Source of the DNA: Methanosarcinales archaeon
Lineage (GTDB): Archaea > Halobacteriota > Methanosarcinia > Methanosarcinales > Methanocomedenaceae
NCBI GenBank assembly: GCA_030610815.1
Contig: JAUWRA010000044.1
Coordinates: 1 to 15,547 of the forward strand
Length of the DNA stretch: 15,547 bases
Direction of reading: 5' to 3'
Positions 1,533 to 15,547 of this stretch are shown here, in pieces. The stretch's first letter is position 1, and each line of letters begins with the position of its first letter. The notes beneath the pieces were generated by a model. The model was not told where the DNA came from, did no database searches, and worked only from the letters and a program-made list of their open reading frames with translations. The translations under genes and the position numbers were made by a program.

Positions 1533-1694
1533 CTGGTCATATAGTTAATTTGGAATTGACTTAAGAGTTTCCAAAACTATTCCACCGTTTCCTTTCGTTT
1601 ACAGATATAAAGATTAACTTGGTCCACCTTTCATGCTGGCATCGAAGTGTTTACTATCATTCAGTACTATTAGAATGTGAGGAATGAAAGTAGA

Positions 1695-2417
1695 ATGGTA
1701 CATGAGATTATTCAGGCACAGTGTCCTAATTGTTCACCACATGAACCTGTGCCCCACGATATACTGAAAGAAAAACCTGACATATTGATAAAATGTACAT
1801 TATGTAGTACAATCCATCCTTATTACTCTGAAAAAAAGAAGAAAACAAATATCAGGGTTGTTATCAGTGCAGGCGATAACTCCACCAAAAGCACAATTGT
1901 CCAGGATTGTGATGAGATCATATCCGTGGATGATGAGTTCATAGTGGAAAGCGAACCCGAAGGCGATGCCAGTTTTGTGCTTGTCACATCGATCGAATCA
2001 GGCGACAAACGGGTAAATAGTGCCAGGGCCGATGAGATCGACACAATATGGACCCGGTATACGGATACAGTCACGACCAAGATATCCATCACACGGGGCT
2101 GGCAGACAGAATCCATTGAAATGGAAGTGCCTGGTGAACGGGAGTTCACAGTCGGGGAAATGTTGTCGTCGGGGTCTAACAGGTTCGTAATAAAAAAGAT
2201 AAAAGTGCGGGATGGGCAATTCCTTAAAAGGAACGGGGAGTGCATCATGGCAAAATACATCAAACGTATCTTTGCCGACTCCTCTGAACGGATGGAATGG
2301 TTAAGGGATTATAAAAAGACAGGTAAAAAAAGACCTGGCAAATCCTACTCCGGCGGACCTGTGATCAAACCACGGGGGCCTTCAACATGGACCTTGAAAA
2401 GGAAAGAAGGCAACTAA
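1695..2417 (+). CDS. Conserved archaeal Zn-ribbon protein of unknown function with a basic C-terminal tail (COG1326-like)
   Basis: The ORF track gives 1677..2417 from a GTG; the first ATG is at 1695 ([41 protein letters not shown]). It has a CxxC...CxxC zinc-ribbon signature and a Lys/Arg/Gly-rich C-terminus. Its end overlaps the pcm start by 31 nt, suggesting co-transcription. Confidence 0.65.
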
Positions 2418-3025
2418 TAAATGGATTAAGATCAAGATATCCGGAAATCCGGGATAGGGTTCTTGATGCAATGGTATGTGTGCCCAGGCACAGTTTCATG
2501 CATGAAAGTGAGCAGAGGTTCGCATATGCGGACAATCCGCTTTCGATCGGGGAGGGACAGACCATATCTGCACCACATATGGTGGCCATAATGTGTAACC
2601 TGCTGGAGCTTGAGCCCGGGCAGAAAGTGCTGGAAGTGGGAGGGGGTTGCGGATATCATGCTGCTGTCATGGCCGAACTGGTCCGCCCGGGCGGACATGT
2701 ATATACAATTGAACGCATCCCATCACTGGCTGAGTTTGCACGTAAAAACCTGGTCAATACGGGATATGAAGATGTAACTGTCATAATCGAGGACGGCAGC
2801 CAGGGATTGCCCGCACTTGCTCCTTTTGACAGGATATCTGTGGCATGTTCTGCGCCTGAAGTGCCTGAGGTCCTGGTCGAACAACTGGCAGCAGGTGGAA
2901 AGATGGTGATACCTGTGGGCCGTTACATGCAGGAACTGTACCTGGTCACGAAGTCGAACGGCGTAAAAAAAGAAGCAAAGGGTGGGGTCGTGTTTGTACC
3001 CCTGGTTGGGAAATACGGATTCTGA
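2387..3025 (+). CDS. pcm: Protein-L-isoaspartate O-methyltransferase
   Basis: The 212 aa ORF carries family hallmarks: [25 protein letters not shown], the SAM-binding [18 protein letters not shown], and MVIPVG near the C-terminus. Confidence 0.93.
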
Positions 3026-3148
3026 TTTCAATAATTAATTTGAAGACTTTTAGAATAAATTGAAAAATATCTGAATTTATTGCCACAGACCAATCATATC
3101 CTTTACAGTCATATCCTTTAATGTAGCCGCCCTCCAATATATCCAGAC

Positions 3149-4357
3149 ATGCCTTCGCTATGTGTATCCTGTAAGGGGAAGGGGCTGTGCGGCCGTCCTG
3201 CCTGCCCCATACTTGAGAGGTTCAAGTCACTTGGCACAACTCCCAAGCTTTCTGATAACATTTTTGGTGCATCTCCTCCCTCGGTCTTTGTAGGACGGTA
3301 CGGGTATCCGCAGGTATCTGCGGGACCACTGGTCCCGCCGGAGGTCACGGGCAGTGATGCTGCAGTCTATGACAGTCCGGGCTCATGGAACAACTTAAGT
3401 ATCAGGGATATCGTGGGACTCAGGTCCGGCCTGGTCAGGTCAAATATAAAATTCCATGTGAAGGATGCCTCAAATCCCGATGCCATGCTGCAAAAGACCC
3501 AGGAACTGGCATTATCTGAAAAACCTGTAGATACAGAGGTGTGGTTCAGCAAGGTGCCCCGTGTGGGACTGCGTTTCGATGGCGTACTTTCGCCCATGGG
3601 CCCTGCCGGAGAGGTTACAAAGCTGGATATAGCCCAGAACCCGGTAGTCCCCAGGCAGGTGGATAAAGCAGTAAGTGATACCGATGCCAGGGCTGTGGAT
3701 GAGATAGGGGAACTCTATAACGCAGATATCACTGTGGACCACATTAACAGGTTACTTTCTATCGGACTGCTGGGAAAACAGCGCAAGATCGTGCCCACCC
3801 GCTGGTCCATCACCGCCACAGATGATATGGTTGGGAAGATGTTGATCGATGATATCCGGTATTTCCCTGAGGTCAATGATGTCCTGCTGTATAGCGGAGG
3901 ATTACACGGGAACCACTTCGAGATACTGGTGTTTCCCGGGGCCTTTGCGTACGAATTAATAGAGATATGGATGCCAAAGGCTGTATGGTCAACCGGGGCA
4001 ACTTCAGTAGGATCGGATTGGGAAGACTATGGCGGCAAGAAAGGATACTCGAACCTGGGCGGCGGGTATTATGCGGCACGCCTGCCTGTGCTTGAGCACC
4101 TGCACCGGATGCACCGCAGTGCCAATGTGTTCGCGATCAGGGAAATTACACCCGATTACTGGGCACCCCTGGGGGTATGGGTGGTCAGGGAAGCTGCCCG
4201 GGAAGCTGTGTCATCGGTCCCGGTGAGTTTTGATTCCGTTAACGATGCACTGGATGATATGTCTTTGCGGATAAATACCGTTAGCGAGATGTGGCGACCC
4301 GAATCAAAACTGCTGGATAGGAAGATGAACCAGAAGAGGCTAATGGATTTTCTTTAG
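3149..4357 (+). CDS. nreA: Nre-family DNA repair protein (NreA-like, DUF650/DUF651 architecture) with a C-terminal PIP box
   Basis: The 402 aa ORF has an N-terminal Cys cluster (LCVSCKGKGLCGRPACPIL) typical of archaeal Nre proteins. The last eight residues, QKRLMDFL (4331-4354), fit the PCNA-interacting consensus QxxLxxF(F/L/Y). Confidence 0.78.
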   Translation: MPSLCVSCKGKGLCGRPACPILERFKSLGTTPKLSDNIFGASPPSVFVGRYGYPQVSAGPLVPPEVTGSDAAVYDSPGSWNNLSIRDIVGLRSGLVRSNIKFHVKDASNPDAMLQKTQELALSEKPVDTEVWFSKVPRVGLRFDGVLSPMGPAGEVTKLDIAQNPVVPRQVDKAVSDTDARAVDEIGELYNADITVDHINRLLSIGLLGKQRKIVPTRWSITATDDMVGKMLIDDIRYFPEVNDVLLYSGGLHGNHFEILVFPGAFAYELIEIWMPKAVWSTGATSVGSDWEDYGGKKGYSNLGGGYYAARLPVLEHLHRMHRSANVFAIREITPDYWAPLGVWVVREAAREAVSSVPVSFDSVNDALDDMSLRINTVSEMWRPESKLLDRKMNQKRLMDFL

Positions 4358-4408
4358 GATTGTGCAAATGAAGACTTAACTAAAGATACAAATGAAGATA
4401 GAAAGTCA

Positions 4409-4437
4409 AGAAAATGCACACTTCGTTCGCATTTTCT
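4409..4437 (+). terminator. Perfect 9-bp-stem hairpin (agaaaatgc / gcattttct, 11-nt loop) about 50 nt downstream of nreA
   Basis: Inverted repeat read directly from the sequence. No oligo-T tract follows, so a terminator role is only tentative. Confidence 0.3.
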
Positions 4438-4511
4438 AAGCCTACTGGAAAGTATATACTTTCCTATACGTTGAATAACATTAAATCATAGTATCCTCAT
4501 AGGTTCCTTCT

Positions 4512-5228
4512 ATGCCTGAAATTGAACAGTCCCGGGTGGCCGGCCTTGAACAAGTACATTTCCAGACCGTTCGCCCGAAAAAGATGGCCATGTTCAATAC
4601 GAGCAGTACTGAATTGAAACATCTGTTCATTTCCTGGGTGGCAATATCCTATGCATTCGCCATTATGCTCGCATGGATTGAACTTGGCAACAATAAACCC
4701 ACGAGCTCTCAGATATTTGGGTCTTCTCAAATATTGGGATCGAATATCACTGACTTGTTTATAATCTCCCTGGTCACGGTGGGTATAGCCTTTATTTTCC
4801 ATGAGATGGGGCACAAGTTCGTTGCTCAGCAGTACGGTGCATGGGCCGAGTTCAGGATGAGTTTCGGGATGTTACTGCTGGCCATTTACATGGCATGGCA
4901 GATCGGTATCCTGTTTGCAGCACCCGGGGCCGTGCGGATATTCGGACCACTCATAACCAATAAACAATACGGTAAGATCGCTGCCGCAGGACCTGTGATG
5001 AACCTCTTTTTGGCTTTTGCTTTCATGCCGCTGTTAAATGGTACCGGGTTTTTAAACGATATAGGTCGCCTGGGTGTGATCATCAATATGATGCTGGCAG
5101 GATTCAATATGCTGCCGATCAGCATACTGGACGGGCGCAAGGTGCTGGCATGGAGTCCGATTGTATATATCGGGTTGTTCATGACAATAATTGTTGTAGG
5201 TATGTTCTTTGTTGCCATATTGATATAA
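4512..5228 (+). CDS. Peptidase M50 / site-2 protease family membrane metalloprotease
   Basis: It has HEMGH (HExxH) in a hydrophobic segment, plus the second family motif NMLPISILDG, and multiple predicted TM segments. An alternative start is ATG 4584 (MAMFNTSS). Confidence 0.85.
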   Translation: MPEIEQSRVAGLEQVHFQTVRPKKMAMFNTSSTELKHLFISWVAISYAFAIMLAWIELGNNKPTSSQIFGSSQILGSNITDLFIISLVTVGIAFIFHEMGHKFVAQQYGAWAEFRMSFGMLLLAIYMAWQIGILFAAPGAVRIFGPLITNKQYGKIAAAGPVMNLFLAFAFMPLLNGTGFLNDIGRLGVIINMMLAGFNMLPISILDGRKVLAWSPIVYIGLFMTIIVVGMFFVAILI

Positions 5229-5384
5229 GAATGGAAAAGACATCACTCCTGCAATAATTAACAAATAATCACTTATATTTTCGATTTGCTGTTCGATTCC
5301 AGTAAGACTTTTATAGTTTAAACAATCTGGAAGATTCCTGAAAAAATTCGAATTACCATTCACATTGCCTGTGAGGAAGCACAA

Positions 5385-6521
5385 TTGAACACAGAACTGA
5401 TTGAACCATTCGATCTTAAGATCGGATATCTTACTCCAAAAAACCCCATTGCTCTTGCCCCTATGGCAGGTATTACCAACAGCAATTTTGCACAACAGTT
5501 CACTGACCATGCAGGACTGGTGGTACTGGGCGGTTATAACCTGGATGAAAGTACAAACGATGCTGCAAAAAGAATTGCCCAGCGCGGGCGCAGTGAGTTC
5601 GTAACAGATTCACCAATGGAATTCCTGACATCTGAACTGGAAACAATCACTGAAAACTCTGATGATTGTGCCGTACTTGTTAATGTCAGGGCGGCAGATA
5701 TCGATGTATATGTCGAAGCTGCCCGGATCGCTAAAAAATACGGGGCGGGTATTGAAATAAATGCACACTGCCGCCAGCCCGAGATAATGGAACTGGGCGC
5801 AGGTCAATCCCTGCTTGAGCATCCTGATACACTGCGCGAGATCATTGAAGCGGTCAAGGGCACGGGAGTTGTAGTCTCAGTCAAGATCAGGGCCAATGTG
5901 GTTGACGACCTGATGACTGCCTATATGATTGAAAAGGCTGGTGCCCATATCATCCATATCGATGCCGTGGGCAGGCATGGGGCTGACGTCAATCTCATAA
6001 AAAGGATACGCAACATTACATCCATGTTTATTATTGGTAACAATTCGATCGTTGATTATTCTGCAGCCAAGTCCATGTTCTCCAGGGGCGCTGATATGGT
6101 CTCTGCTGCCAGGGCAGTATTAAAAGAACCCAACACCCTGCGGTTCCTTGTGGACCAGATCACCTCATACCAGATGACCACGGGCTGGTATAATTCGCCA
6201 AAACACATATGCGGCGGCGGGGACCTGCGGGCACTGGCTTTTTGCTGCCTGCCAGTAAAACCCTGTGCAGTTCACAATGCCCTTAACCAGATCGGTATGT
6301 CAGCCGAGGAGTTTACAAAGCTGAAACTGCAAATGGTAAAGGGAACACTCCTGGAATACGGGGATAGTACCTGTTTCGGGAGCATGGCATGGTGCTGCAA
6401 GATCACCAAACCATGTTTCTTAAGGGACGGCGTGCTGGAAGTGGTGGGTCTTTCTGATATCGAATTTATGCGTCTTAAAAAGCAGATGTCTGAAGAAATA
6501 CTGGCACACCGAAAGCGATAA
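5385..6521 (+). CDS. DUS/FMN-oxidoreductase-like TIM-barrel protein with a duplicated Cys-rich C-terminal module (resembles methanogenesis marker 9 proteins)
   Basis: TTG start. The N-terminus PIALAPMAGITN resembles the dihydrouridine-synthase-like LAPMAG motif. The C-terminal 100 aa holds two copies of a CC-x4-KPC ... G(M/L)S-x-xEF-x-(K/R)LK-x-QM module. The marker-9 assignment is from memory of the family, not from a search. Confidence 0.6.
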   Translation: MNTELIEPFDLKIGYLTPKNPIALAPMAGITNSNFAQQFTDHAGLVVLGGYNLDESTNDAAKRIAQRGRSEFVTDSPMEFLTSELETITENSDDCAVLVNVRAADIDVYVEAARIAKKYGAGIEINAHCRQPEIMELGAGQSLLEHPDTLREIIEAVKGTGVVVSVKIRANVVDDLMTAYMIEKAGAHIIHIDAVGRHGADVNLIKRIRNITSMFIIGNNSIVDYSAAKSMFSRGADMVSAARAVLKEPNTLRFLVDQITSYQMTTGWYNSPKHICGGGDLRALAFCCLPVKPCAVHNALNQIGMSAEEFTKLKLQMVKGTLLEYGDSTCFGSMAWCCKITKPCFLRDGVLEVVGLSDIEFMRLKKQMSEEILAHRKR

Positions 6522-6715
6522 ATAGTAATTTTTAATCTGGAAACATCCTGATCCTGATCAACGATGGGGGTGAAAAGCAGTTGTACTTTTAGCCGTACTT
6601 TTTCAAAACTTTGATGATTCAATACATTGTTAAAGAAACTGAGCAATTCACCCGATTATTGGATCGATCTAAATTATGGTGGTATAGTATTAAAAAAGAA
6701 GAAAAATTCTCACTA

Positions 6716-8452
6716 ATGGAAAAACATGAAAAAAAAGTAATTTTCACAATCGTAGTTATTAGTATCCTTTTTTTACTTTTAATTGTCTTTATGGGAATAA
6801 AAACCCACAATGATCTGGATGAAGTTGTAAAGCAGGAATTCAATAAACAACAATTGCTCCTTGTCAAGCAGTTTTCAACTGGTGTAGAGGAATTCCTGAA
6901 TGAAAAAGTTGAATTGACAGAATCAATAGCCCGAAACCATGCAAATGATTCTCCTGAGGAATTCCAGGCATTATTTATAGATATCTACGAAGGTAGCACA
7001 GGTTATTATGCCCTGGAGTACATCAATGCCAGTGGTGTGGTTGTTGCAGGTTATCCGGAAGAAAATGTTCCTATTGGATATAACCTGTATGAAAATAACA
7101 GGGAATATCCAATTGAACATGCCAGGGACACCAGGGATGCATATTGTACGAATCCGGTTGATCTTTTTGAAGGGGGTCTTGGTTCGTTTATCTGGGTCCC
7201 GATCTTTGATGGAGAGGAGCATAAAGGAACCATACTTGGGATAATACGAATCTCCACCCTGGTAGAAAAATATCTCGAACATAACGATTCTTTCTGTTAT
7301 GTATATCTTGTTGACAGGAACACACAGGTATTGTATGATGGGTCCGGGCAATATACTGCAGGAGATAATTATTTTGATATGCTTAATGAATCAAATCCGG
7401 AATGGATGCACATCATAGAAGAACAGTTGAACGGGGCAGAAGGAACTGCAGAATTTACTCTAAATGGAAAATACAATACATCAGAAAACCAGATGATAGC
7501 ATTCTCACCTATAGAGTGGCGGCGGCGGTTATGGTCAGTGGCGATTGTATGCCCTTCTGAAAAAGTTGAAGAAATTGTAAACCCAATATTAGTGAAACAT
7601 ACACTCCTCGTATTATTCTCTGCCAGTATCACCTTGCTGGGTGGATTCTCCCTTATCCTGCTGCTTACAAGCTGGAACAGATCCCTGAAACTTGAAGTTC
7701 ACAATAAAACCTATGAACTCAAGCAGTCCAATGAATTCCTGGAAAAGGCAAACCAGAAGCTAAAGGAACTGGATGGATTGAAATCCGATTTTGTTTCCAT
7801 GGTTTCGCATGAACTCAAAATGCCCCTTACCGCTATAAAGACTTCAACCGAACTGTTAAAAGATGCTGACGAGAACGAATTGATCGATAAAGATGAATTG
7901 ATCGAGAAGATACTGCGAAATGTTGACCGCCAGACACGTATGGTCAATGACCTGCTGAATCTTTCCCGGATCGAATCAGGCATGATGAACTTCAATAAAG
8001 AAGAAGTAGATCTACACGAAGTTATCAGTACATCTATCGAGACTATTGAGAAAACCGCCTATGACCTGGGAATAGGTATTTACACATCCGTTCCCGAACA
8101 CCTGCCCGGCATTACTGGAAATAAGGATGCCCTTGTATCCGTATTTGTAAACCTGTTGAATAATTCCCTGAAATTCACTCCATGGGGGGGCAGGATCGAT
8201 ATTGACATCGTGGAACTTGACCAGTATATACAGGCCACTGTAAAAGATAATGGAATTGGACTGGGAACTGACGATATTGGAAAAATATTTGAAAAATTCT
8301 ATCGGGTGGGTAATGATATATACAATGATACCATCGGGACGGGTCTGGGTCTTGCCATCGCAAAAGGGATTGTTGAAGGGCATGGAGGTTCGATTGAGGT
8401 AGAAAGCAAGGAAGGCAAAGGTATAACATTTACCTTCACAGTAAAAAAGTAG
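6716..8452 (+). CDS. Sensor histidine kinase with an extracytoplasmic Cache-like domain, HisKA and HATPase_c
   Basis: The ORF is open from TTG 6611 / ATG 6614, but ATG 6716 (MEKHEKKVIFTIVVISILFLLLIVFMGI) places a TM helix at the N-terminus as expected. A second TM (LLVLFSASITLLGGFSLILLL) follows. Other motifs: H-box SHELKMPLTAI, N-box NLLNNSLKF, G1 DNGIGL, G2 GTGLGLAIAKGIVEGHGG. Confidence 0.9.
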   Translation: MEKHEKKVIFTIVVISILFLLLIVFMGIKTHNDLDEVVKQEFNKQQLLLVKQFSTGVEEFLNEKVELTESIARNHANDSPEEFQALFIDIYEGSTGYYALEYINASGVVVAGYPEENVPIGYNLYENNREYPIEHARDTRDAYCTNPVDLFEGGLGSFIWVPIFDGEEHKGTILGIIRISTLVEKYLEHNDSFCYVYLVDRNTQVLYDGSGQYTAGDNYFDMLNESNPEWMHIIEEQLNGAEGTAEFTLNGKYNTSENQMIAFSPIEWRRRLWSVAIVCPSEKVEEIVNPILVKHTLLVLFSASITLLGGFSLILLLTSWNRSLKLEVHNKTYELKQSNEFLEKANQKLKELDGLKSDFVSMVSHELKMPLTAIKTSTELLKDADENELIDKDELIEKILRNVDRQTRMVNDLLNLSRIESGMMNFNKEEVDLHEVISTSIETIEKTAYDLGIGIYTSVPEHLPGITGNKDALVSVFVNLLNNSLKFTPWGGRIDIDIVELDQYIQATVKDNGIGLGTDDIGKIFEKFYRVGNDIYNDTIGTGLGLAIAKGIVEGHGGSIEVESKEGKGITFTFTVKK

Positions 8453-8456
8453 CATT

Positions 8457-8666
8457 ATGATCGTACAGGAAGATGCTGAGGATTTCAATGAACTTGACAG
8501 GAAGATCAAGGAGGAAGCCGGGAAGAGGACTGATTCTGTCCTTGTCTGCCCCCAGTGCAATTCGACAAACGTCACGTATTACATGGGTCTCAAGACCGGT
8601 GTCCAGTACCAGTGCAAGGAATGCGACTACGTGGGTGCATTTATTATTGAAAGGGACAAAGAATAG
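8457..8666 (+). CDS. Small (69 aa) Zn-ribbon protein, unknown function
   Basis: It starts 4 nt after the kinase stop. Two CxxC pairs are present (CPQCNS ... CKECDY). The gene is short, so coding status is moderately supported. Confidence 0.5.
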   Translation: MIVQEDAEDFNELDRKIKEEAGKRTDSVLVCPQCNSTNVTYYMGLKTGVQYQCKECDYVGAFIIERDKE

Positions 8667-8821
8667 AACCGACAAGAAAATCCTCTGTTCGGTCGGATCA
8701 ACTTGACCAGATGATCTTATAGATCATTTACTACGAGAAAGGTATAACAAGTCATACAAAATAAATACAAAAGTTTTTTTACATAAAAGCCTTCAATGGA
8801 AGGATGAGGAGATAAAACAAA

Positions 8822-9133
8822 ATGAATGCAGAAATCGAAAAATGGGCTTCACAACAGGACTTACTTGCACTGCTATACTCACTGATCCTGGCAATAGTAT
8901 CCACTGCTGTTATCTGGATACTTGATAAGTTCATGTTCAAGCATACGGATTTCAATCCGCTGACCGAGGTCCAGTTCTATGGTGTTCTTTTTATCGTGGT
9001 TTTTGGCTTAATTGCGGGTCTTATGTTTTATAGGGAAACGAAAGAGACTACAGAAAAAGTGAGTGAGTTCAGGACCAAGATGGACAAGAAAAAGCTGAAA
9101 AAATCCAAAAAGGCAAAGGCCCGGTCCCGATAA
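8822..9133 (+). CDS. Small membrane protein (2 predicted TM helices, Lys-rich C-terminal tail)
   Basis: A purine-rich ggatgaggag lies upstream of the ATG. Hydrophobic segments are LLALLYSLILAIVSTAVIWIL and FYGVLFIVVFGLIAGLMFY. The tail is KKKLKKSKKAKARSR. Confidence 0.55.
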   Translation: MNAEIEKWASQQDLLALLYSLILAIVSTAVIWILDKFMFKHTDFNPLTEVQFYGVLFIVVFGLIAGLMFYRETKETTEKVSEFRTKMDKKKLKKSKKAKARSR

Positions 9134-9138
9134 ATCTT

Positions 9139-10266
9139 TTATTTTTCAAGTATTGTTATTGTACTTCTCTCACCCACACTCAATTCCACTTCGTCATTCC
9201 ATCCTGACTTAGCATAGCAGTCGGTCACCTGCAGTTTAGTCCCGATGTCTATCTCATCTATGATCCCGGTCTGCTTATCCCAGAGTGCAGTCTTTATCCT
9301 GCCTGAATCATCTGATAAGTGGATGTTCACTACCCTGCCACTTGAGCCGTCCTTGCGCTGGAATTCCCTCAGTTCATCAAGCCCTGTAACATATCCTATA
9401 ATGCTGTATGACTCATTGATCTCGATATCACCAATGAGGGTGATCATCTCACTGAACTCCACCTGCTTACTGGTCTTTTTTATTGAGCTGTTATTTCCCA
9501 GGTTGACCTCCACCTGGTTGTTGAAGGAATTCTCTTTTGAATAGCCTCCGGTTATTTCTATGGTGTCACCCAGGTTCAACTGATCGACTTGTTCCACATT
9601 TTCATCCCATAACGTGAGCCTGATCTTACCTGTGGGGTCGCCCAGTGTCAGGTTCCTGACCTTGCCAGTAGAATTATCCTTTCGCTGGAATGTCCGGGTA
9701 TCTGCCATGTCCAGTATCTTTCCTATCAGGTGTATATCGCTCATACCCGCTTTTATCTCCTCGATACGGTAGGGTTCTGTCCTTACCCTGATCTCTTCAC
9801 TCATGGCCACTTTATCCACACTGCCGCCCCTGCCAACACTGACCTCAAGACCATTACGCCCCTCCCTGACAAGACCGGATACCTGGACTGCATCCCCAAA
9901 TACGATCTCTCCTACCTGTACCAGGTCGGCAGCACTTTCCCATAGCACGACCCTGATAGAACCAGTTTCATCCGCAACTGTCAGGTTGGCAACACTGCCT
10001 GTGGAACCGTCCTCACGATTGAATTCCCTGGCATCTGAACATGCCGTGATCTTGCCCACTATCGTAACATTAGAATTATCAAGTGTTACTTGTCCTATCT
10101 TTACCTTATCATCGTACTCGCCCATATCATAGATCACAAGGGTTGCAAGAGTTTTATCATCCGGAAGTCCGCCCAGGAGTTGTTTCTTCTCTTCCATCCG
10201 GGCAAGGAAATCTTCCATGCTCATGCGGTCTTTTACTTTCTCATATATTTCGGTTATTTCATCCAT
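9139..10266 (-). CDS. rpa: RPA-like single-stranded DNA-binding protein with three tandem OB folds
   Basis: Three internal repeats share the pattern (R/T)xF(N/Q)R(E/K)DGS(T/S)G-V-N(L/I)-(L/V)-D-(T/S)G-IR/K--LW(D/E). The ORF is open to 10338, but ATG 10266 (MDEITEIYEKVKDRMSMEDFLARMEEK) leaves a sensible divergent promoter gap to the FKBP gene. Confidence 0.85.
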   Translation of the reverse strand: MDEITEIYEKVKDRMSMEDFLARMEEKKQLLGGLPDDKTLATLVIYDMGEYDDKVKIGQVTLDNSNVTIVGKITACSDAREFNREDGSTGSVANLTVADETGSIRVVLWESAADLVQVGEIVFGDAVQVSGLVREGRNGLEVSVGRGGSVDKVAMSEEIRVRTEPYRIEEIKAGMSDIHLIGKILDMADTRTFQRKDNSTGKVRNLTLGDPTGKIRLTLWDENVEQVDQLNLGDTIEITGGYSKENSFNNQVEVNLGNNSSIKKTSKQVEFSEMITLIGDIEINESYSIIGYVTGLDELREFQRKDGSSGRVVNIHLSDDSGRIKTALWDKQTGIIDEIDIGTKLQVTDCYAKSGWNDEVELSVGERSTITILEK

Positions 10267-10415
10267 AGCTATCCCCGTTGAAAGATTGATTGGAATGAAT
10301 TGATTTAAGACTTTTCTATCGGTCATACATGTCATCAATTGTTGTAAGCTTGTAATGATCTGGCATGGAAATGTTTTTTACCAATCCCGTTATCTTAGAC
10401 CCCGGTGTAATTATC

Positions 10416-11162
10416 ATGACGATCAATGAAGGAGATTTTATTAAAATATCATACACAGGTAAATTAGAGGACGGTACTATCTTCGATACTACAAATGAAG
10501 AGGTGGCAAAGGTCCATAATATATATAATTCCAATGGCAGGTACGGTGGCGATGTGATCATTATTGGTGTGAACCAGATGATCGCCGGTCTTGAGGAAGA
10601 TATAAAAGAACATGAAGCAGGCTATGAAGGGACTGTCACAATTCCACCTGAAAAAGCTTTTGGTGACCGTGATCCCAAATTGCTGAGGGATCTTCCCCTC
10701 AGACGTTTAGAACAGAAACCACATGAAGGGATGATGGTTCAATTCGAAGGCAAACAGGCTAAGGTACTCAAGGTCATGGGACGCCATGCCAGATTGGATT
10801 TCAACAGCCCTATGGCAGGCCAGATGATAACATATGATTACAAGATCGAAGCCGTGCTTGAGGAACTGAAGGAAAAAGCAGTTGGTCTTAGTGCACTTTA
10901 TATGGCCAAGGAAATGGACATCGAGATCGATGGTACTGTTGCCAGGGTCAACGTGCCCCTGGAGTTTAATTATTCACAGCATTGGTTGAACACTAAATCA
11001 CAGCTGGCACTGGATATGTTGAAATATACTGAACTGACAGAAGTGTTATATGTTGAAACTTATACAGAAGAACTGGTAAAGCCTGATTCTGAAGAAGAGG
11101 AGCAATTAGAAGCTGAAGAGTCTGATGAATCCGAATCAGATGAACCGGAAGACTCAGAATAA
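10416..11162 (+). CDS. FKBP-type peptidyl-prolyl cis-trans isomerase, archaeal long type with an acidic C-terminal tail
   Basis: The ORF is open from 10365; the likely start is ATG 10416 (MTINEGDFIKISYTGKLEDGTIFDTT). Later motifs are GVNQMIAGLEEDI and PPEKAFGDRDPKL. The C-terminus is Glu/Asp/Ser-rich. Confidence 0.87.
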   Translation: MTINEGDFIKISYTGKLEDGTIFDTTNEEVAKVHNIYNSNGRYGGDVIIIGVNQMIAGLEEDIKEHEAGYEGTVTIPPEKAFGDRDPKLLRDLPLRRLEQKPHEGMMVQFEGKQAKVLKVMGRHARLDFNSPMAGQMITYDYKIEAVLEELKEKAVGLSALYMAKEMDIEIDGTVARVNVPLEFNYSQHWLNTKSQLALDMLKYTELTEVLYVETYTEELVKPDSEEEEQLEAEESDESESDEPEDSE

Positions 11163-11174
11163 TTAGAAGAACCT

Positions 11175-11195
11175 GGAGAGGAGAAAACCCTCTCC
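11175..11195 (+). terminator. Hairpin ggagagg-agaaaac-cctctcc just after the FKBP stop
   Basis: Perfect 7-bp inverted repeat read from the sequence, followed by T/A-rich sequence. Confidence 0.35.
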
Positions 11196-11200
11196 TTCAA

Positions 11201-11208
11201 TTATATTT
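11201..11208 (+). promoter_or_regulatory. TATA-box-like element (ttatattt) about 22-29 nt upstream of the tRNA-Ser 5' end
   Basis: Sequence and spacing are consistent with an archaeal TATA box at about -26 relative to a transcript starting near 11230. Confidence 0.4.
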
Positions 11209-11229
11209 GATCCAACCTGAAACAACCTT

Positions 11230-11314
11230 GCTGAGGTAGCCAAGCGGACCACGGCGCCGGTCTTGAAAACCGGTGGTGCACTGCGCCACGGGAGTTCGAA
11301 TCTCTCCCTCAGCG
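11230..11314 (+). tRNA. tRNA-Ser (anticodon UGA), class II with a long variable arm, no encoded CCA
   Basis: Hand fold: acceptor gctgagg/cctcagc plus discriminator g. D arm gcc...ggc. Anticodon stem ccggt/accgg with loop cttgaaa (anticodon tga). Variable arm tggtgc-act-gcgcca. T arm gggag-ttcgaat-ctctc. Confidence 0.9.
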
Positions 11315-11316
11315 TA

Positions 11317-11327
11317 TTTCTTTTTTT
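11317..11327 (+). terminator. Oligo-T tract (tttcttttttt) immediately after the tRNA-Ser
   Basis: Archaeal RNA polymerase terminates at oligo-T runs, and this one sits 3 nt after the discriminator base. Confidence 0.5.
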
Positions 11328-11428
11328 AAGACTATTGTTCTGGTTATTTGTCTTATTCTTTTATGCTTCAAGGCACGTTTGTCACGAACCCCTAACACCG
11401 CTATTATGGTTTGTGCAAGGACAAAACA

Positions 11429-12715
11429 CTAATCAAGAAGCCACTTACAAAGAGAAACATATCTGATGTTCTTCCCGGAAACAATTTCAACCGCCTCATA
11501 ATCCCATGTAATGATCAGCAGATTATCGCATCGAAGTTCCTCTGAACCTTGCAGGAGAGCTTTTACTTCACGCTCTTTCGTCACAAAATCATCAAGCATG
11601 TAACATACCTGTATAAGTTCAGAGACCTTTTTCCCCTCCTTAATGATAAAATCAATTTCCCTGCCAGATGTGGACTTATAGTAAAACAAATCTCCTTTGC
11701 TTCTTCTTTTCAGTTCAATATAAACAATGTTTTCAATAAGCCTCCCATAGTCCTGTATGCCTTGCAGGGACAGTAGTCCATTATCGACAAGATATATCTT
11801 TGATATACTTGATTCTATATTTTTGTAAGAATAAGAGAACCTCTTGAGTGGAAAAACAATAAATGAATCTTCAAAATAACCGAAATATGTATACAACGTA
11901 TTTTTGCTTATCTTATAGCCTTGCGATTTGAGAAAATTATAAAACTTATGGATTGAAAATTCCTTTGAATTGAATATAGCATTAAGAAAGAGTTTCAGCA
12001 TCTTTATGTTTTTCACATCATACCTTTCCACAATATCCCTGAATATTGTCACATCTACTATCTCACTCAATATCCGGTCCCACTCTTCCCTGTAACGCAC
12101 TGTTTCAGGAAACCCGCCGTATCTGACATAATCTTCCAGTTTTTGGATTATTTCCCCCATCTGCGCTGATGAAAGATATTCTTCATACTCGAGTTTGCCT
12201 GCTTTAAGGACTTCGGCAAAAGAGAAGGGATATACATTGTATGTCAGGCTTCTTCCCCTCATGCTCGTGGCGATCTCTTTACTCATAAGCCTGGATGATG
12301 AACCAGTGACAAACACATTGACATTTTCCATATCAACAAGTGTCCTTACAAATCGTTCCCAATCAGGGATTACCTGTATCTCATCAAGGAATACCCAGGT
12401 TTTTTTATTCCTGTCAGGATAAATCTCAAAAAATACTTCAAGAAGTGTGTTCAGGTCTTGTGACACTGCACCCACCAGTCTTGAATCTTCAAAGTTCACA
12501 TACAATATACTGTTTTTATTTTCTTTACGCGCTAAAAGCTCTTTGATTCCCAGATACATGAGATATGTCTTACCTGACCTTCTGGGACCTGAAAGAACAA
12601 CAGCTCTGTCCAATGGGATGTCAAGAGGATAGTGTATATCCCTCTGTACAATGTCGGGATATCGCCTTTTCTGGAAATCTTTAATTATGTTTCCCCAGAG
12701 TGTCTTTGAGATCAT
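11429..12715 (-). CDS. AAA+ superfamily ATPase of the COG1373 type (AAA_14 N-domain plus DUF4143-like C-domain with a PD-(D/E)xK-like signature)
   Basis: The 428 aa ORF has Walker A GPRRSGKT and Walker B VFLDEIQ. The C-terminal region ENIVYIELKR ... GREIDFIIKEGKKVSELIQV resembles the nuclease-like DUF4143 core. Confidence 0.85.
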   Translation of the reverse strand: MISKTLWGNIIKDFQKRRYPDIVQRDIHYPLDIPLDRAVVLSGPRRSGKTYLMYLGIKELLARKENKNSILYVNFEDSRLVGAVSQDLNTLLEVFFEIYPDRNKKTWVFLDEIQVIPDWERFVRTLVDMENVNVFVTGSSSRLMSKEIATSMRGRSLTYNVYPFSFAEVLKAGKLEYEEYLSSAQMGEIIQKLEDYVRYGGFPETVRYREEWDRILSEIVDVTIFRDIVERYDVKNIKMLKLFLNAIFNSKEFSIHKFYNFLKSQGYKISKNTLYTYFGYFEDSFIVFPLKRFSYSYKNIESSISKIYLVDNGLLSLQGIQDYGRLIENIVYIELKRRSKGDLFYYKSTSGREIDFIIKEGKKVSELIQVCYMLDDFVTKEREVKALLQGSEELRCDNLLIITWDYEAVEIVSGKNIRYVSLCKWLLD

Positions 12716-12766
12716 AGTATTGTATAAGGGGAAATAATTAATAAAAGTTTCCCCTTATAGAATACT
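12716..12766. promoter_or_regulatory. 19-bp imperfect inverted repeat (18/19) with an AT-rich 13-nt loop, directly abutting the ATPase start codon
   Basis: The left arm agtattgtataaggggaaa (12716-12734) pairs with the right arm tttccccttatagaatact (12748-12766). The loop is taattaataaaag. Confidence 0.45.
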
Positions 12767-12788
12767 ATTGTACCTGGCCACCAGCAGA

Positions 12789-13034
12789 TTATATCAATAT
12801 CTGCACTGAACTGCCGCCGCTATCGGCGCAGCCTACTCCCGGCATTGCCGGGATAAGGATTTCTGTAGCTTCAGCCAGCAATTCTTCCCCGTATTCCCTG
12901 TACTGCCATTCCCTTGCCTGTGGTTGTAGCCCCACACCCACCAGCGGCCCATAGACATGGAGTTCCCGCACCAGGGCCTCACCCTCAGGCTCAGGACTGT
13001 GCGGGGCATCGGGATACCTCAACCAGGAACCACG
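12789..13034 (-). pseudogene. 5'-truncated remnant of an Elp3-like (radical SAM/GNAT tRNA modification enzyme) gene, C-terminal GNAT portion only
   Basis: The ORF-track peptide GSWLRYPDAPHSPEPEGEALVRELHVYGPLVGVGLQPQAREWQYREYGEELLAEATEI matches the conserved Elp3 C-terminal block RELHVYG...QHxGxGxxLLxEAExIA. Only about 80 codons are present, so most of the gene, including the radical SAM domain, is missing. This stretch is noticeably more GC-rich than its surroundings. Confidence 0.6.
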
Positions 13035-13170
13035 TTGCTGAGGTGGCCAAGCAGACCACGGCGCCACGAGAGTTCAAATCTCTCCCTCAGCGTCTTTCCT
13101 TTTTACGACTATTGTTCTGGTTATTTGTCTTTTTCTATTATGCTTTGAGGCACGTTTATCACAGACACCG
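13035..13170 (+). repeat. Copy B of the duplicated tRNA-Ser segment (pseudo-tRNA plus about 78 bp of downstream flank)
   Basis: Roughly 85-90% identity by eye to copy A outside the 29-nt deletion. Homology ends at 13170, one base before the stop codon of the first AT-rich cassette gene. Confidence 0.85.
13037..13092 (+). pseudogene. Degenerate tRNA-Ser copy lacking the anticodon arm and variable arm (29-nt internal deletion)
   Basis: The sequence is gctgaggtggccaagcagaccacggcgcc|acgagagttcaaatctctccctcagcg. The acceptor, D and T arms align to 11230-11314 with a few substitutions. The missing 29 nt are bounded in the intact copy by a direct gcgcc repeat. Confidence 0.8.
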
Positions 13171-14202
13171 TTACACTCTGTCATTATCTTTCCCATGTTT
13201 TTTTTGGTGTATGGATAATTTATTATACAATTTAAATGAAAATATCAATGAAAATATCAATGAAAATATCAAAGGTATTAATAGTTCCAATAGTGTTCCA
13301 AACTTCCTGTCTATAACTTCTTCAACTGGATCTATAAATTCGGATGAAATAGTAAATATTACATCAAATATTACAAACAGTGTTAATAATAAAATCCCAG
13401 TTTCTACTTCATGTATTTTAGTAAGAATATCACTTTGAGTTTCAACTGCTTTGATTTGTGCAGATGATAATTTGTTTTGAATTTCGATTAAATCCATATG
13501 TCTATGATCTAAAAGATTATTTATTGCTAACATTTTCATTTTAAATAATCTAGGGAATATTTTCGACGCTGGACAATCAAGTAGATGAAATTTATAACCC
13601 CAGAAGACTTTTATGACATCTTGTTGGTTAATTTGTTTGCTTTCATTTCTCAAGAACTCATGTTCCATTGAGTGGGCTAGTAAAGATAAGGTAAGTAATG
13701 CAATAATATTATCCTTTATTTTTTTAGTTAATTCATCATCATAGGTGATTATTAAATTAAAACATAAATCTTTCACGATATGAAATTCATTTTTTTCATT
13801 AATTTCAGAGTAAAGATAATTAAAGTCATCCAATACTTCATTATTTTCAACAATTCTTAATAAATATTTTTGAGTATCTTTTGAACCAAACACACCACAT
13901 TCATTTTTGTATTTGAAATAAATTTCATTGCTATCGATAAAATCTTTATATATGTATTCTATATCTAAACATTCAAACACAAAAATTGCAGAATTTAATT
14001 TTTGGTGTTTTCGACAAGTAATGAGCCATTTATTTCCATTTAAATTAATTGTTTTACTATATTTATCGTAATGTGTATAAGGATTGGATGGAATCGGACC
14101 TTTTTTTTCTGCAACTTCCCAACCATTTTCCTCTGGATTAATATCAAAATCTTTTTTTTGAGGTAAAAGTGGAATAATATATAAAAATATATTTTTAGTC
14201 AT
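13171..14202 (-). CDS. Unknown protein: soluble N-terminal domain (~265 aa) plus two C-terminal TM helices and a basic tail (CorA-like topology, no GMN motif)
   Basis: 343 aa, very Asn/Lys/Ile-rich. TM1 is GILLLTLFVIFDVIFTISSEF (about 13336-13404), followed by the acidic loop DPVEEVIDRK. TM2 is LLELLIPLIFSLIFSLIFSF (about 13225-13302), with tail HQKKHGKDNDRV. Its ATG overlaps the upstream gene's stop (ATGACTAA, 14195-14202). Confidence 0.75.
   Translation of the reverse strand: MTKNIFLYIIPLLPQKKDFDINPEENGWEVAEKKGPIPSNPYTHYDKYSKTINLNGNKWLITCRKHQKLNSAIFVFECLDIEYIYKDFIDSNEIYFKYKNECGVFGSKDTQKYLLRIVENNEVLDDFNYLYSEINEKNEFHIVKDLCFNLIITYDDELTKKIKDNIIALLTLSLLAHSMEHEFLRNESKQINQQDVIKVFWGYKFHLLDCPASKIFPRLFKMKMLAINNLLDHRHMDLIEIQNKLSSAQIKAVETQSDILTKIHEVETGILLLTLFVIFDVIFTISSEFIDPVEEVIDRKFGTLLELLIPLIFSLIFSLIFSFKLYNKLSIHQKKHGKDNDRV
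13235..13270. repeat. Perfect 12-bp tandem repeat x3 (aatgaaaatatc) inside TM2 of the 343-aa ORF
   Basis: Read directly from the sequence. On the minus strand it encodes the reiterated LIFS units of LIFSLIFSLIFS. Confidence 0.95.
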
Positions 14203-15304
14203 TTGAAAATTCCATTAATTTTATTTCAGGCATTGAACTCGTGAACCAATCGTTTATTGCTGATTTTAAATTTTGATTATTTTTTATTTCAAATGAAATT
14301 GTTTGGCTCTTGACAATATTCAACACTTCCTTAAATAGACTCTTATTGCAATTGAGATGTGAACACGTTAAACAAACATTCATAGTTTTACTGACCCCCA
14401 GAGAACAGATAGGAAGAAACTCAGATAGGTCAAATTCTTCATAACTATTTTCAGATTTTTCAGATTTTAAACATTGTTTTGGTGGATAAAACATATTATT
14501 AGTTGTTATTAATTCAACAAAATTACCATCGTGCATTTTTGTTATTTTGACACAAAAATTACTTGCGCCGTTTACTATTAAATTCTTTTTAATCGGATAG
14601 AATTTTTCCATTTCGTCTTTAAAATGGCCCAGATTGAACAAGTTATCTACTTTAAAAAAAATACTCATTTTATATCCATTAATTTCCTCGCTTTGCACAT
14701 CTAATTCTTTCTTGCTATGAGGTATATGCCAAGGCATAACAAAGACTTTGTAACCCACTGGAAATTCTCTTATTGTTGAAATAGGTAAAAATGAATTATG
14801 GTGTACATATGCAAGCGTTTTGAAGGATTTTACGCAACTACTACTCATTTTCATCAATTCATCCTCAAGAAAATGTACACGTGTTGCACCAGTTAGGTTA
14901 TCATCCATTATTAAAACATTAAGTGGATTATCTCGACTCTCAGATAATTCTTTTAAATCGTTCATTAAAATTTGTCTAATGTCTGTCATTTCATGAAGTG
15001 ATGTTGGATGATCCATTACAAAACAAGGATTGTTTTTTTTACAGGTAAATCCTTTTGGAATTGGACGAACACAAGCTTTATCTATGTTTGAATACTCAAG
15101 GATTGTATCTTTTAACAGACACGCAAATGAATATGCAAGAATTGTACCTCCTCTAGAAAAGCCTAAGATTACATCGTAAGAATCTTTTACCAATTCTTCT
15201 TTATTAGATTCTATATAAGATTCTAGATTTTTTCCAAAATCTATCCACTTTTCATAAAATATATCTCCATCAGTTTTTCGATAGTTACCACTCAAATTAT
15301 TCAA
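14195..15304 (-). CDS. Phosphoribosyltransferase (type I PRTase fold)-like N-domain fused to an unknown ~170-aa Cys-containing C-terminal domain
   Basis: 369 aa with a TTG start. DVILGFSRGGTILAYSFA resembles the PRTase flexible-loop region. NVLIMDDNLTGATR (14879-14920) resembles the PRPP-binding loop VLIVDDxxDTGxT. VFVMPWH resembles the FPWE-type end of COG2236-like PRTases. The C-terminal domain contains C-x10-C-x2-C-x4-C (14348-14407). Confidence 0.7.
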   Translation of the reverse strand: MNNLSGNYRKTDGDIFYEKWIDFGKNLESYIESNKEELVKDSYDVILGFSRGGTILAYSFACLLKDTILEYSNIDKACVRPIPKGFTCKKNNPCFVMDHPTSLHEMTDIRQILMNDLKELSESRDNPLNVLIMDDNLTGATRVHFLEDELMKMSSSCVKSFKTLAYVHHNSFLPISTIREFPVGYKVFVMPWHIPHSKKELDVQSEEINGYKMSIFFKVDNLFNLGHFKDEMEKFYPIKKNLIVNGASNFCVKITKMHDGNFVELITTNNMFYPPKQCLKSEKSENSYEEFDLSEFLPICSLGVSKTMNVCLTCSHLNCNKSLFKEVLNIVKSQTISFEIKNNQNLKSAINDWFTSSMPEIKLMEFSND

Positions 15305-15328
15305 CTCTAGTAATAATTTTATAGCAGA

Positions 15329-15547
15329 TCAAGAAGCTTTCCGAGAGTATTTGGATAGATAAATTGCTCCACCATCTTCTCTATAAATTTTTTCGAAATT
15401 GTTCAAAATTGCATCCCCTGAGTACTCCAATTCGGCTATTATTGACATCATAATATATTCGTCTGAAACGTCAAACTCCTTACACAGTTCATAGATTGTT
15501 TTTCCCTCGGTGGTAAGTCCTTGTTTGACCTGTTCTTTCAAATCCAT
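15329..15547 (-). CDS. Small (72 aa) probable winged-helix DNA-binding protein
   Basis: KTIYELCKEFDVSDEYIMMSIIAELEYSGDAIL has the helix-turn-helix plus wing pattern of small wHTH proteins (FeoC/MarR-like). The ATG is the last codon of the window, so the true N-terminus could lie further upstream. It is co-directional with, and in the same frame as, the PRTase-like ORF. Confidence 0.55.
   Translation of the reverse strand: MDLKEQVKQGLTTEGKTIYELCKEFDVSDEYIMMSIIAELEYSGDAILNNFEKIYREDGGAIYLSKYSRKAS

Follow-up and report, generated by a model that had tools for sequence, protein, structure and literature searches.

The last 2.4 kb of a 15,547-nucleotide stretch of DNA from a Methanosarcinales archaeon (hereafter the window) hold three genes on the minus strand, of which the middle one encodes a 369-residue protein that joins a phosphoribosyltransferase (PRTase)-like domain to a cysteine-bearing C-terminal domain (CTD). 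We call this protein PRTase-CTD. The window covers bases 1-15,547 of a contig of 15,874 bases in an assembly of 2.37 Mb and 220 contigs, and its chromosomal genes are archaeal and of the methanogen type (replication factor A, above its curated cut-off; a methanogenesis marker 9 domain; NreA; and a family B DNA polymerase). The genes and the two domains of the central protein are as follows:

15329..15547, minus strand: upstream gene for a probable winged-helix protein of 72 amino acids (aa), with an invariant YREDGGxI motif and a GGAGGT Shine-Dalgarno-like site before its ATG
14195..15304, minus strand: PRTase-CTD gene (PRTase-like plus Cys-domain protein, 369 aa), initiating at TTG and ending in a stop codon at 14195-14197
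14717..15304, minus strand: residues 1-196, the N-terminal domain with a type I PRTase fold (supported by Foldseek, BFVD, the 1vdm sequence match and the L021 split)
14198..14716, minus strand: C-terminal domain, residues 197-369, alpha/beta, with a confident model and no family or Protein Data Bank (PDB) fold match
13171..14202, minus strand: two-transmembrane (two-TM) partner, 343 aa, with a soluble part of ~255 aa, a Gln-rich helical stretch of variable length, two C-terminal transmembrane helices and a basic tail

The original prediction, made from the sequence, had delimited the central gene as 14198-15304, which is the coding part of the open reading frame (ORF) 14195-15304 on the minus strand without its stop codon. 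It had further proposed that the fusion of a PRTase to this C-terminal domain is undescribed, and this stands: searches of PADLOC, of papers and of the names given by source databases turned up no description of such a fusion, nor did the literature search yield a paper on the cassette around it. The order of the genes is nearly constant across the recovered loci (a gene of ~70-100 aa, PRTase-CTD, and a gene of ~330-355 aa). PRTase-CTD is informative chiefly through this mobile three-gene cassette and through its TIR-fused and CARF-linked variants, rather than as an isolated gene.

The PRTase-fold domain and its phosphate loop

By structural modeling, the N-terminal half of the protein is a PRTase at the level of the fold. 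An AlphaFold2 model of the whole protein, built with 33 homologues, has a mean predicted local distance difference test score (pLDDT) of 85.9 and a predicted template modeling score (pTM) of 0.82. Foldseek searches of the PDB with this model return 41 matches at E<=1e-3, and all among the 50 matches listed are PRTases or PyrR, with a probability of 1.0. These include the Sulfolobus HGXPRT (4zfn, E 1.5e-5), the Pyrococcus purine PRTase (1vdm, template modeling score up to 0.67 on the target), the Escherichia coli XGPRT and a ppGpp-bound Neisseria protein (5vog), and the PDB matches are confined to about the first 190-200 columns of PRTase-CTD. In the viral structure library BFVD, the top matches are phage PRTases. 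At the sequence level, the best PDB match of the family profile is again 1vdm, with DVILGFSRGG aligned to DVIIGVARGG (E 0.25 and 0.042). In the metagenome homologue L021, a frame change at residues 193/196 splits the gene in two, marking the boundary between the domains. The original assignment of the first 195 residues or so to the type I PRTase fold is thus upheld for residues 1-196, and no search placed the whole protein in a well-characterized family.

Profile searches gave a less direct picture. The window protein has no match in direct searches of Pfam, NCBIfam, PADLOC or PHROGs. The PRTase profile PF00156 (gathering cut-off 26.3 bits) is silent on it at E<=1, as it is in a scan of the whole genome; the structure model does match PRTases. 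Among its relatives, family member P0050 scores 27.1 bits, above the cut-off, and the L022 copy scores 14.4 bits. The link of the window protein to PF00156 is therefore only transitive, because its relative passes the cut-off and it does not itself. Since the Pfam threshold and the canonical PRPP (phosphoribosyl pyrophosphate) motif both failed, PRTase-CTD is filed as PRTase-like and not in a named PRTase family.

The elements of the domain, read in order from its N-terminus, are the following:

15146..15175, minus strand: DVILGFSRGG, residues 44-53, equivalent of the pyrophosphate (PPi) loop; G52 and G53 invariant, R51 near-invariant
14990..15058, minus strand: conserved loop that follows strand 2, residues 83-105, placed where PRTases have their flexible loop; P83 invariant, K89 and F95 near-invariant; its role is a presumed one
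14879..14920, minus strand: NVLIMDDNLTGATR, residues 129-142, non-canonical PRPP loop; D134, D135, N136, T138 and R142 invariant across the family
residues 162-169 of PRTase-CTD, minus strand: KTLAYVHH, from re-translation
14726..14746, minus strand: VFVMPWH, residues 187-193, end of the PRTase domain; M190 and P191 invariant, H193 near-invariant

All of the motifs quoted in the original prediction, namely DVILGFSRGG, NVLIMDDNLTGATR, KTLAYVHH, VFVMPWH and the cysteine-rich ICSLGVSKTMNVCLTCSHLNC of the C-terminal domain, were recovered when the gene was re-translated from its coordinates. They are not chance matches, because homologues keep them. Searching 5.8 billion proteins by word index gave 36 homologues of 39-83% identity, and an exhaustive profile search of 1.84 billion cluster representatives returned only 34 proteins at E<=1e-3, with no ordinary PRTase among them. 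Almost all of these homologues are unnamed; one fragment of 225 aa carries the JGI label hypoxanthine phosphoribosyltransferase, and one homologue comes from a Methanothrix metagenome-assembled genome (MAG). Down to identities of 18-24%, the family retains F49, G52, G53, P83, D134, D135, N136, T138, R142, M190, P191, P275, C278, C311 and C314 without exception, and R51, K89, D108, H193, K276 and C300 are near-invariant.

The relationship to the purine PRTases of the XGPRT/HGXPRT type (1vdm, 4zfn, 4jls, 1nul; PF00156) is one of shared core fold (Foldseek E 1.5e-5 to 1e-3), shared xRGG PPi loop and a shared DD pair after a hydrophobic strand. The superfamily's PPi loop is present in the window protein as FSRGG (residues 49-53), which aligns with VARGG of 1vdm. 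However, the phosphate loop differs: the canonical PRPP motif (a hydrophobic strand and two acidic residues followed by xxx-(T/S)-G-x-(T/S)) is not matched, though the acidic pair is invariant. In the window protein D134-D135 are followed by N-L-T-G-A-T-R, and family-wide the loop reads DDN(L/I)Txxx-R, so that DDNLTGATR, with invariant Asn and Arg, stands in the place of DDxxx(T/S)Gx(T/S). The non-canonical loop noted in the original prediction is accordingly confirmed; in the host genome, all six housekeeping PRTases have canonical loops of the form DDxxx(T/S/R)Gx(T/S). PRTase-CTD also departs from the XGPRT/HGXPRT enzymes in a long helix (residues 103-124) before the PRPP strand, in the appended Cys-rich domain of 173 aa, and in being encoded by a mobile, low-GC and rare gene instead of a housekeeping one. 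When the family profile was compared with the host PRTases, the only match was a local, ungapped alignment of the PRPP loop to the host loop CIIVDDVVTTGST, which is not significant alone. That loop belongs to a host protein of 209 aa (genome G000, contig C139; L039:1270-1881), in which an HTH-like N-terminus, read from the sequence, is fused to a canonical PRTase domain.

As the PPi loop, the acidic pair and the PRPP loop are all invariant, the site looks used and not decayed. The original prediction had raised altered or lost catalysis and a nucleotide-sensing role; the conservation argues for a working ligand site in the PRTase-fold domain, which on sequence would be compatible with catalysis or with pure ligand sensing.

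The C-terminal domain and the partners of PRTase-CTD

The C-terminal half had been described as belonging to no recognized family, and the searches bear this out. Residues 197-369, modeled alone from 19 sequences of the fetched loci, yield a mixed alpha/beta structure with a pLDDT of 86.5 and a pTM of 0.84. Foldseek found nothing significant for it in the PDB (best E 0.11, probability <=0.38, template modeling score <=0.39), and Pfam scans of 19 members of the domain produced nothing consistent. One candidate, a SPRY identity raised by a match of residues 271-360 to the SPRY2 domain of RyR (E about 1.5), was rejected: the model is alpha/beta, and no SPRY or RyR structure is among the listed Foldseek matches.

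The domain carries a set of cysteines:

14348..14473, minus strand: Cys cluster, residues 278-319, consisting of YPPKxC278, a variable low-confidence loop, then C300, C311-x2-C314 and C319
residues 299-319, minus strand: ICSLGVSKTMNVCLTCSHLNC, with the spacing C300-x10-C311-x2-C314-x4-C319, from re-translation

A compact C-x10-C-x2-C-x4-C cluster had been proposed as possibly metal-binding. The spacing is present (C300, C311, C314 and C319); the conserved set is a different one. C319 is variable, being Arg in the TIR-fused homologue and lost in distant members, and the fourth conserved cysteine is C278, which lies in an invariant YPPKxC motif outside the cluster as first given. Between C278 and C300 the chain differs in length among homologues and is modeled with low confidence, with a dip in pLDDT at 281-290, as expected of a loop pinned at both ends. 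Together, C278, C300, C311 and C314 probably form a Cys4 site, putatively for zinc or an Fe-S cluster. Association of a PRTase fold with winged helices or with metal sites has precedents: Bacillus PurR and haloarchaeal GfcR are regulators that combine an HTH with a PRTase-like domain, the PRTase fold of PurR sensing ligand rather than catalyzing, ComFC combines a Zn-finger with a PRTase, and PurF is a [4Fe-4S] PRTase. PRTase-CTD shares with these the PRTase fold with a winged helix and/or, putatively, a Cys-ligated metal site. In contrast to them, its winged helix is encoded by a separate gene and its Cys domain is C-terminal and unlike a zinc ribbon; profile comparison revealed no homology.

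Downstream, the two-TM partner begins before PRTase-CTD has ended: the overlap between start and stop is 8 nt in the window and ranges from 4 to 14 nt among 9 of 11 loci. From this arrangement, we take the partner to be translationally coupled to PRTase-CTD. It has no Pfam match and no PDB sequence match. It resembles CorA in topology only (N-in, two transmembrane helices and a basic C-tail), and a CorA/ZntB-type identity was rejected: hhalign comparison with an alignment of CorA from related genomes gave a probability of 0.7%, and there is no GMN motif. Three tandem units of 12 nt at 13229-13272 encode LIFS-LIFS-LIFS in its second transmembrane helix, and the lengths of homologues differ there. 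A copy from a Candidatus Methanoperedens MAG (L032:3-1505, minus strand; L046:8590-9915) bears an extra META domain after the membrane segment (E 2.7e-14), which suggests an extracytoplasmic extension.

The upstream 72-aa protein has only weak HTH or winged-helix matches, and its YREDGGxI motif lies in a hairpin. A conserved read-through fusion of the winged-helix and PRTase genes, in one frame with a single TGA between them, was considered and set aside, as the frame is common to only about half of 10 loci. Homologues of the small protein also occur apart from PRTase-CTD. One, of 77 aa (L045:7001-7234, on the 128.9-kb JGI contig Ga0598270_0000029), keeps IYREDGGAIYLAKY; its contig looks virus-like, carrying many short co-directional genes (radical SAM/SPASM, metallophosphatase, RNA ligase) and lacking PRTase-CTD in the vicinity. 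This homologue might be a regulator in shared use or else mimic, for a virus, a component of the cassette. A more distant homologue (L047:7001-7240; VYREDGGEVHL) stands alone among bacterial-type housekeeping genes (DnaB, RecR, RecO, L21), and the family of small proteins, comprising 113 clusters, is therefore wider than that of PRTase-CTD.

The components of the cassette evolve at different rates. Over 11 loci, the PRTase domain and the winged-helix protein average 55% and 53% pairwise identity, respectively, and the C-terminal domain and the two-TM partner 37.5% each. The pairwise identities of the C-terminal domain and the partner also co-vary, more than the N-terminal domain accounts for, with a partial r of 0.65, versus 0.19 for the N-terminal domain and the partner. 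The equal rates and the co-variation are no more than a hint of a link between the C-terminal domain and the two-TM protein, which may be in contact.

Mobility, rarity and variant architectures

The cassette is compositionally foreign, patchily distributed and horizontally mobile. The GC content of the last 2.4 kb of the window is 26-31%, against 37-51% over the first 12.5 kb, and in the loci compared the cassette remains at 27-35% GC whatever the flanks, which reach 62%. Of 284 genomes in the host's order, 2 carry the cassette, and seven congeners all lack it. A survey of about 185,000 species genomes yielded 3 with the cassette, and it is also present on 12 JGI metagenome contigs. Two short cassette contigs are labeled Saccharibacteria and Muribaculaceae, labels that we treat as unreliable; for one oddly labeled short contig, the BLAST figures to the query equal those of an integrase/Prim-Pol element on a JGI contig. 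In the second carrier genome of the host's order, the locus is 100% identical to a contig of a Candidatus Methanoperedens MAG, in which the cassette has a D5-type primase-helicase and a family A polymerase (PolA) as neighbors. Another copy is inside an integrase/Prim-Pol element, directly upstream of a type III restriction-modification (R-M) system and an EVE-HNH protein, and a further one adjoins a GajB-like UvrD-PD(D/E)xK protein (helicase-nuclease). A small circular element was considered as the carrier and rejected: none of 12 loci checked has terminal repeats, and the longer contigs show integration in chromosomes or elements.

In the window, the edge of the cassette coincides with a tRNA remnant:

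13020..13169, plus strand: degenerate tRNA-Ser copy with its downstream flank, in direct contact with the low-GC cassette; intact tRNA-Ser(UGA) at 11229-11315

A duplication (11213-11392 and 13020-13169) comprises the tRNA-Ser(UGA) and about 75 nt downstream of it; the copies are 87-90% identical, and the second is 29 nt shorter, apparently by the anticodon arm. The two copies bracket only a gene for an AAA_14/DUF4143 ATPase of the PDC-S01 type (11429-12715). The duplication looks like the footprint of repeated integration at a tRNA hotspot.

Around the constant PRTase-CTD, other parts are exchanged. In a Methanothrix MAG (locus L012), PRTase-CTD is preceded, within a single ORF of 553 aa, by a TIR_2 domain (residues 9-132, E 1e-28); the closest PADLOC models to this TIR domain are those of SPARTA TIR-APAZ (2e-22). 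No winged-helix or two-TM gene is nearby, and the fused gene is a single-gene island of 35% GC in DNA of 62% GC. In a distant clade of 30-35% identity (L022 and L048), a CARF-like gene overlaps the start of PRTase-CTD (HFX_2341_N, E 2.6e-14; PADLOC CARF3, 5e-19), and the winged-helix gene, which is longer there, runs divergently. In L048, a ThiF/E1-like gene with a faint BilD_N match (8270-9538, minus strand), possibly part of another defense system, lies about 1 kb away from the pair of CARF-like and PRTase-CTD genes. Other family members carry 185-280 extra C-terminal residues that belong to no family; neither Pfam nor PADLOC has a match for the extensions of P0052, P0057 and P0059. P0057 (602 aa) and P0059 (570 aa) have in common an extension of ~270 aa with the motif DFDTGNP(Y/F)IH(L/M)D, reminiscent of the DTG motifs of aspartic proteases.

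A candidate archaeal conflict system

A constant core with interchangeable modules, in foreign and patchy islands beside restriction- and defense-type genes, is the signature of a conflict system. The defense-type neighbors across the loci comprise type III R-M, EVE-HNH, the GajB-like helicase-nuclease, PDC-S01 and CARF-like genes. The reading that we favor, and to which we would give roughly even chances, is that of a rare, undescribed cassette of methanogen-type archaea, of the conflict or abortive-infection type, in which PRTase-CTD would be a nucleotide- or PRPP-binding core coupled to swappable effectors, a function that we infer from these features. In such a system, the N-terminal domain would keep a site for PRPP or a ribose-5-phosphate nucleotide, made up of the SRGG PPi loop, D134-D135 and the remodeled DDNxT...R phosphate loop. 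The C-terminal domain, held by its putative Cys4 metal site, may be the coupling or sensing part that connects PRTase-CTD to the effector. That effector would be, in the window, the two-TM protein, damaging or gating the membrane once triggered and, in the Methanothrix homologue, a TIR domain of the NADase type fused in cis. The 72-aa winged-helix protein might regulate the operon or its activity. Of this picture, the fold, the conservation, the make-up of the cassette, its mobility and the exchange of modules are observed, and the binding of ligand and metal, the contact of the C-terminal domain with the partner, the membrane damage and the antiviral role are inferred.

Such an organization recalls SPARTA TIR-APAZ, CBASS and the ancillary effectors of type III CRISPR systems, in which sensor cores are likewise combined with swappable transmembrane or TIR modules; here the membrane protein is supplied in trans and the TIR domain in cis. 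The loci examined showed no Argonaute, CD-NTase, cyclase or Cas10, and to our knowledge the PRTase fold is not known as a sensor core in SPARTA, CBASS or type III CRISPR systems.

Several observations weigh against this interpretation. None of the three cassette proteins has a significant match to a PADLOC model, and the PRTase domain may be either a sensor or an enzyme. The co-variation figure was obtained from non-independent pairs drawn from the 11 loci. The TIR fusion is known from a single lineage, and the CARF links of L022 and L048 count as one event because these loci are close relatives (66-84% identity); members of the same distant clade also have no downstream two-TM gene. One locus lies between MutS/MutL and a transporter of the major facilitator superfamily, with no defense genes around it. 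The cassette was not found in IMG/VR or in deposited phages or plasmids, and its carriage by mobile elements is known from a few metagenome contigs. Long contigs are few, most homologous contigs being 3-4 kb, and the enrichment of defense-type neighbors is therefore anecdotal.

The strongest alternative, which we nevertheless consider unlikely, makes the PRTase domain itself the toxic effector, acting by consumption of PRPP or perturbation of the nucleotide pool; the winged-helix and/or two-TM protein would then be a regulator, an antitoxin or a second effector, and the C-terminal domain would be regulatory or sensing. Proteins with the PRTase fold are established parts of bacterial defense in type III retrons, ShosTA/PsyrTA and Ophion (PMC12746101, PMC12961424, 10.1101/2025.09.30.679545). 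The PRTase of Retron-Eco11, which is fused to a winged helix-turn-helix (wHTH), depletes PRPP (PMC12746101), the toxicity of ShosT requires PRPP binding (PMC12961424), and phage infection proceeds normally with the K98A mutant of Ophion OpnC (10.1101/2025.09.30.679545). Like PRTase-CTD, the PRTases of type III retrons, ShosT, PsyrT and OpnC have a non-canonical PRPP motif and reside in small mobile multi-gene systems. A toxic enzyme would also agree with the strict conservation of the three PRPP-contacting elements, with the presence of K89 in the flexible-loop region, and with the PRTase domain being the most conserved part of the cassette, as expected of a catalytic effector. However, the phosphate loop is off the canonical pattern, and among the 50 Foldseek matches listed there are only housekeeping-type or regulatory (PyrR) PRTases and no defense PRTases. 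The PADLOC models for the defense PRTases (retron type III, ShosT/PsyrT and OpnC) have no match at E<=1, and the loci examined contain no reverse transcriptase with noncoding RNA, DprA-like antitoxin (ShosA), or radical-SAM and PHP partner. Thus, by these searches, the PRTase-CTD family has no detectable sequence relation to the defense PRTases. It differs from them further in being archaeal, in its loop, in its C-terminal domain and in having a membrane or TIR partner, and the winged helix that is fused to the PRTase in Retron-Eco11 is here a separate gene. A toxic PRTase also leaves unexplained why two-TM, TIR and extension modules are swapped around a constant PRTase-CTD, as the variable part is usually the effector.

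We hold it still less probable that the cassette works selfishly, stabilizing its carrier elements as an addiction, toxin-antitoxin or exclusion module, and has no dedicated antiviral role, with the two-TM protein as a holin-like toxin and the winged-helix protein and/or PRTase-CTD as antidote or regulator. The cassette is compact, low in GC and patchy, is often the sole content of contigs of 3-4 kb, rides on elements with an integrase and Prim-Pol or with a D5 primase-helicase and PolA, and couples PRTase-CTD translationally to its partner, all of which would suit such a module. Yet a typical antitoxin is far simpler than this two-domain protein of 369 aa and its conserved nucleotide site, the TIR-fused form is a single gene alone in a chromosome of 62% GC with no partner to neutralize, and the link to a CARF-like gene points to signaling. 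An accessory metabolic or regulatory module, either a PurR/GfcR-like HTH and PRTase-like sensor controlling a small membrane channel by PRPP or nucleotides or a nucleobase salvage enzyme with a membrane uptake protein, would fit the existence of HTH and PRTase-like regulators such as the host's own 209-aa protein and the closest structural matches being purine salvage enzymes (including the ppGpp-bound 5vog), but is very improbable given that the host already has six canonical PRTases, the cassette is compositionally foreign and absent from 282 of 284 genomes of the order, no known type of nucleobase transporter is a two-TM protein, neither the TIR fusion nor the defense-type neighbors are accounted for, and the comparison with the host HTH-PRTase gives only the local PRPP-loop match.

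Returning to the conflict-system reading, a more far-reaching form of it, which we put forward tentatively and rate as rather doubtful, is that the cassette represents a new class of archaeal immune core. Here, the PRTase fold would have been re-tooled through the DDNxT...R loop, whether to sense a ribose-phosphate metabolite induced by viruses or to make a PRPP-derived signal, and a new metal-bound fold would dock interchangeable effectors (a pore-forming two-TM protein, a TIR NADase and further domains), with a CARF-like reader in one clade. Even if the cassette should prove not to be antiviral, its loop variant offers a defined test of how a PRTase site is re-purposed, and its C-terminal domain is a candidate new fold with a putative Cys4 site. 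The TIR-fused single-gene variant would provide a simple read-out, the cleavage of NAD+, for whatever PRTase-CTD senses. Few antiviral systems of methanogens and anaerobic methane oxidizers are known, as the discovery of defense systems has been almost entirely bacterial. If the conflict-system reading is true, these archaea would possess a compact system whose constant part combines a PRTase fold, with a remodeled and strictly conserved loop, and a domain that has no counterpart among solved structures. The use of PRPP and nucleotide chemistry in immunity, as in type III retrons, ShosTA and Ophion, would then extend to archaea in another architecture, in which the effector is either a separate membrane protein or a fused TIR domain.

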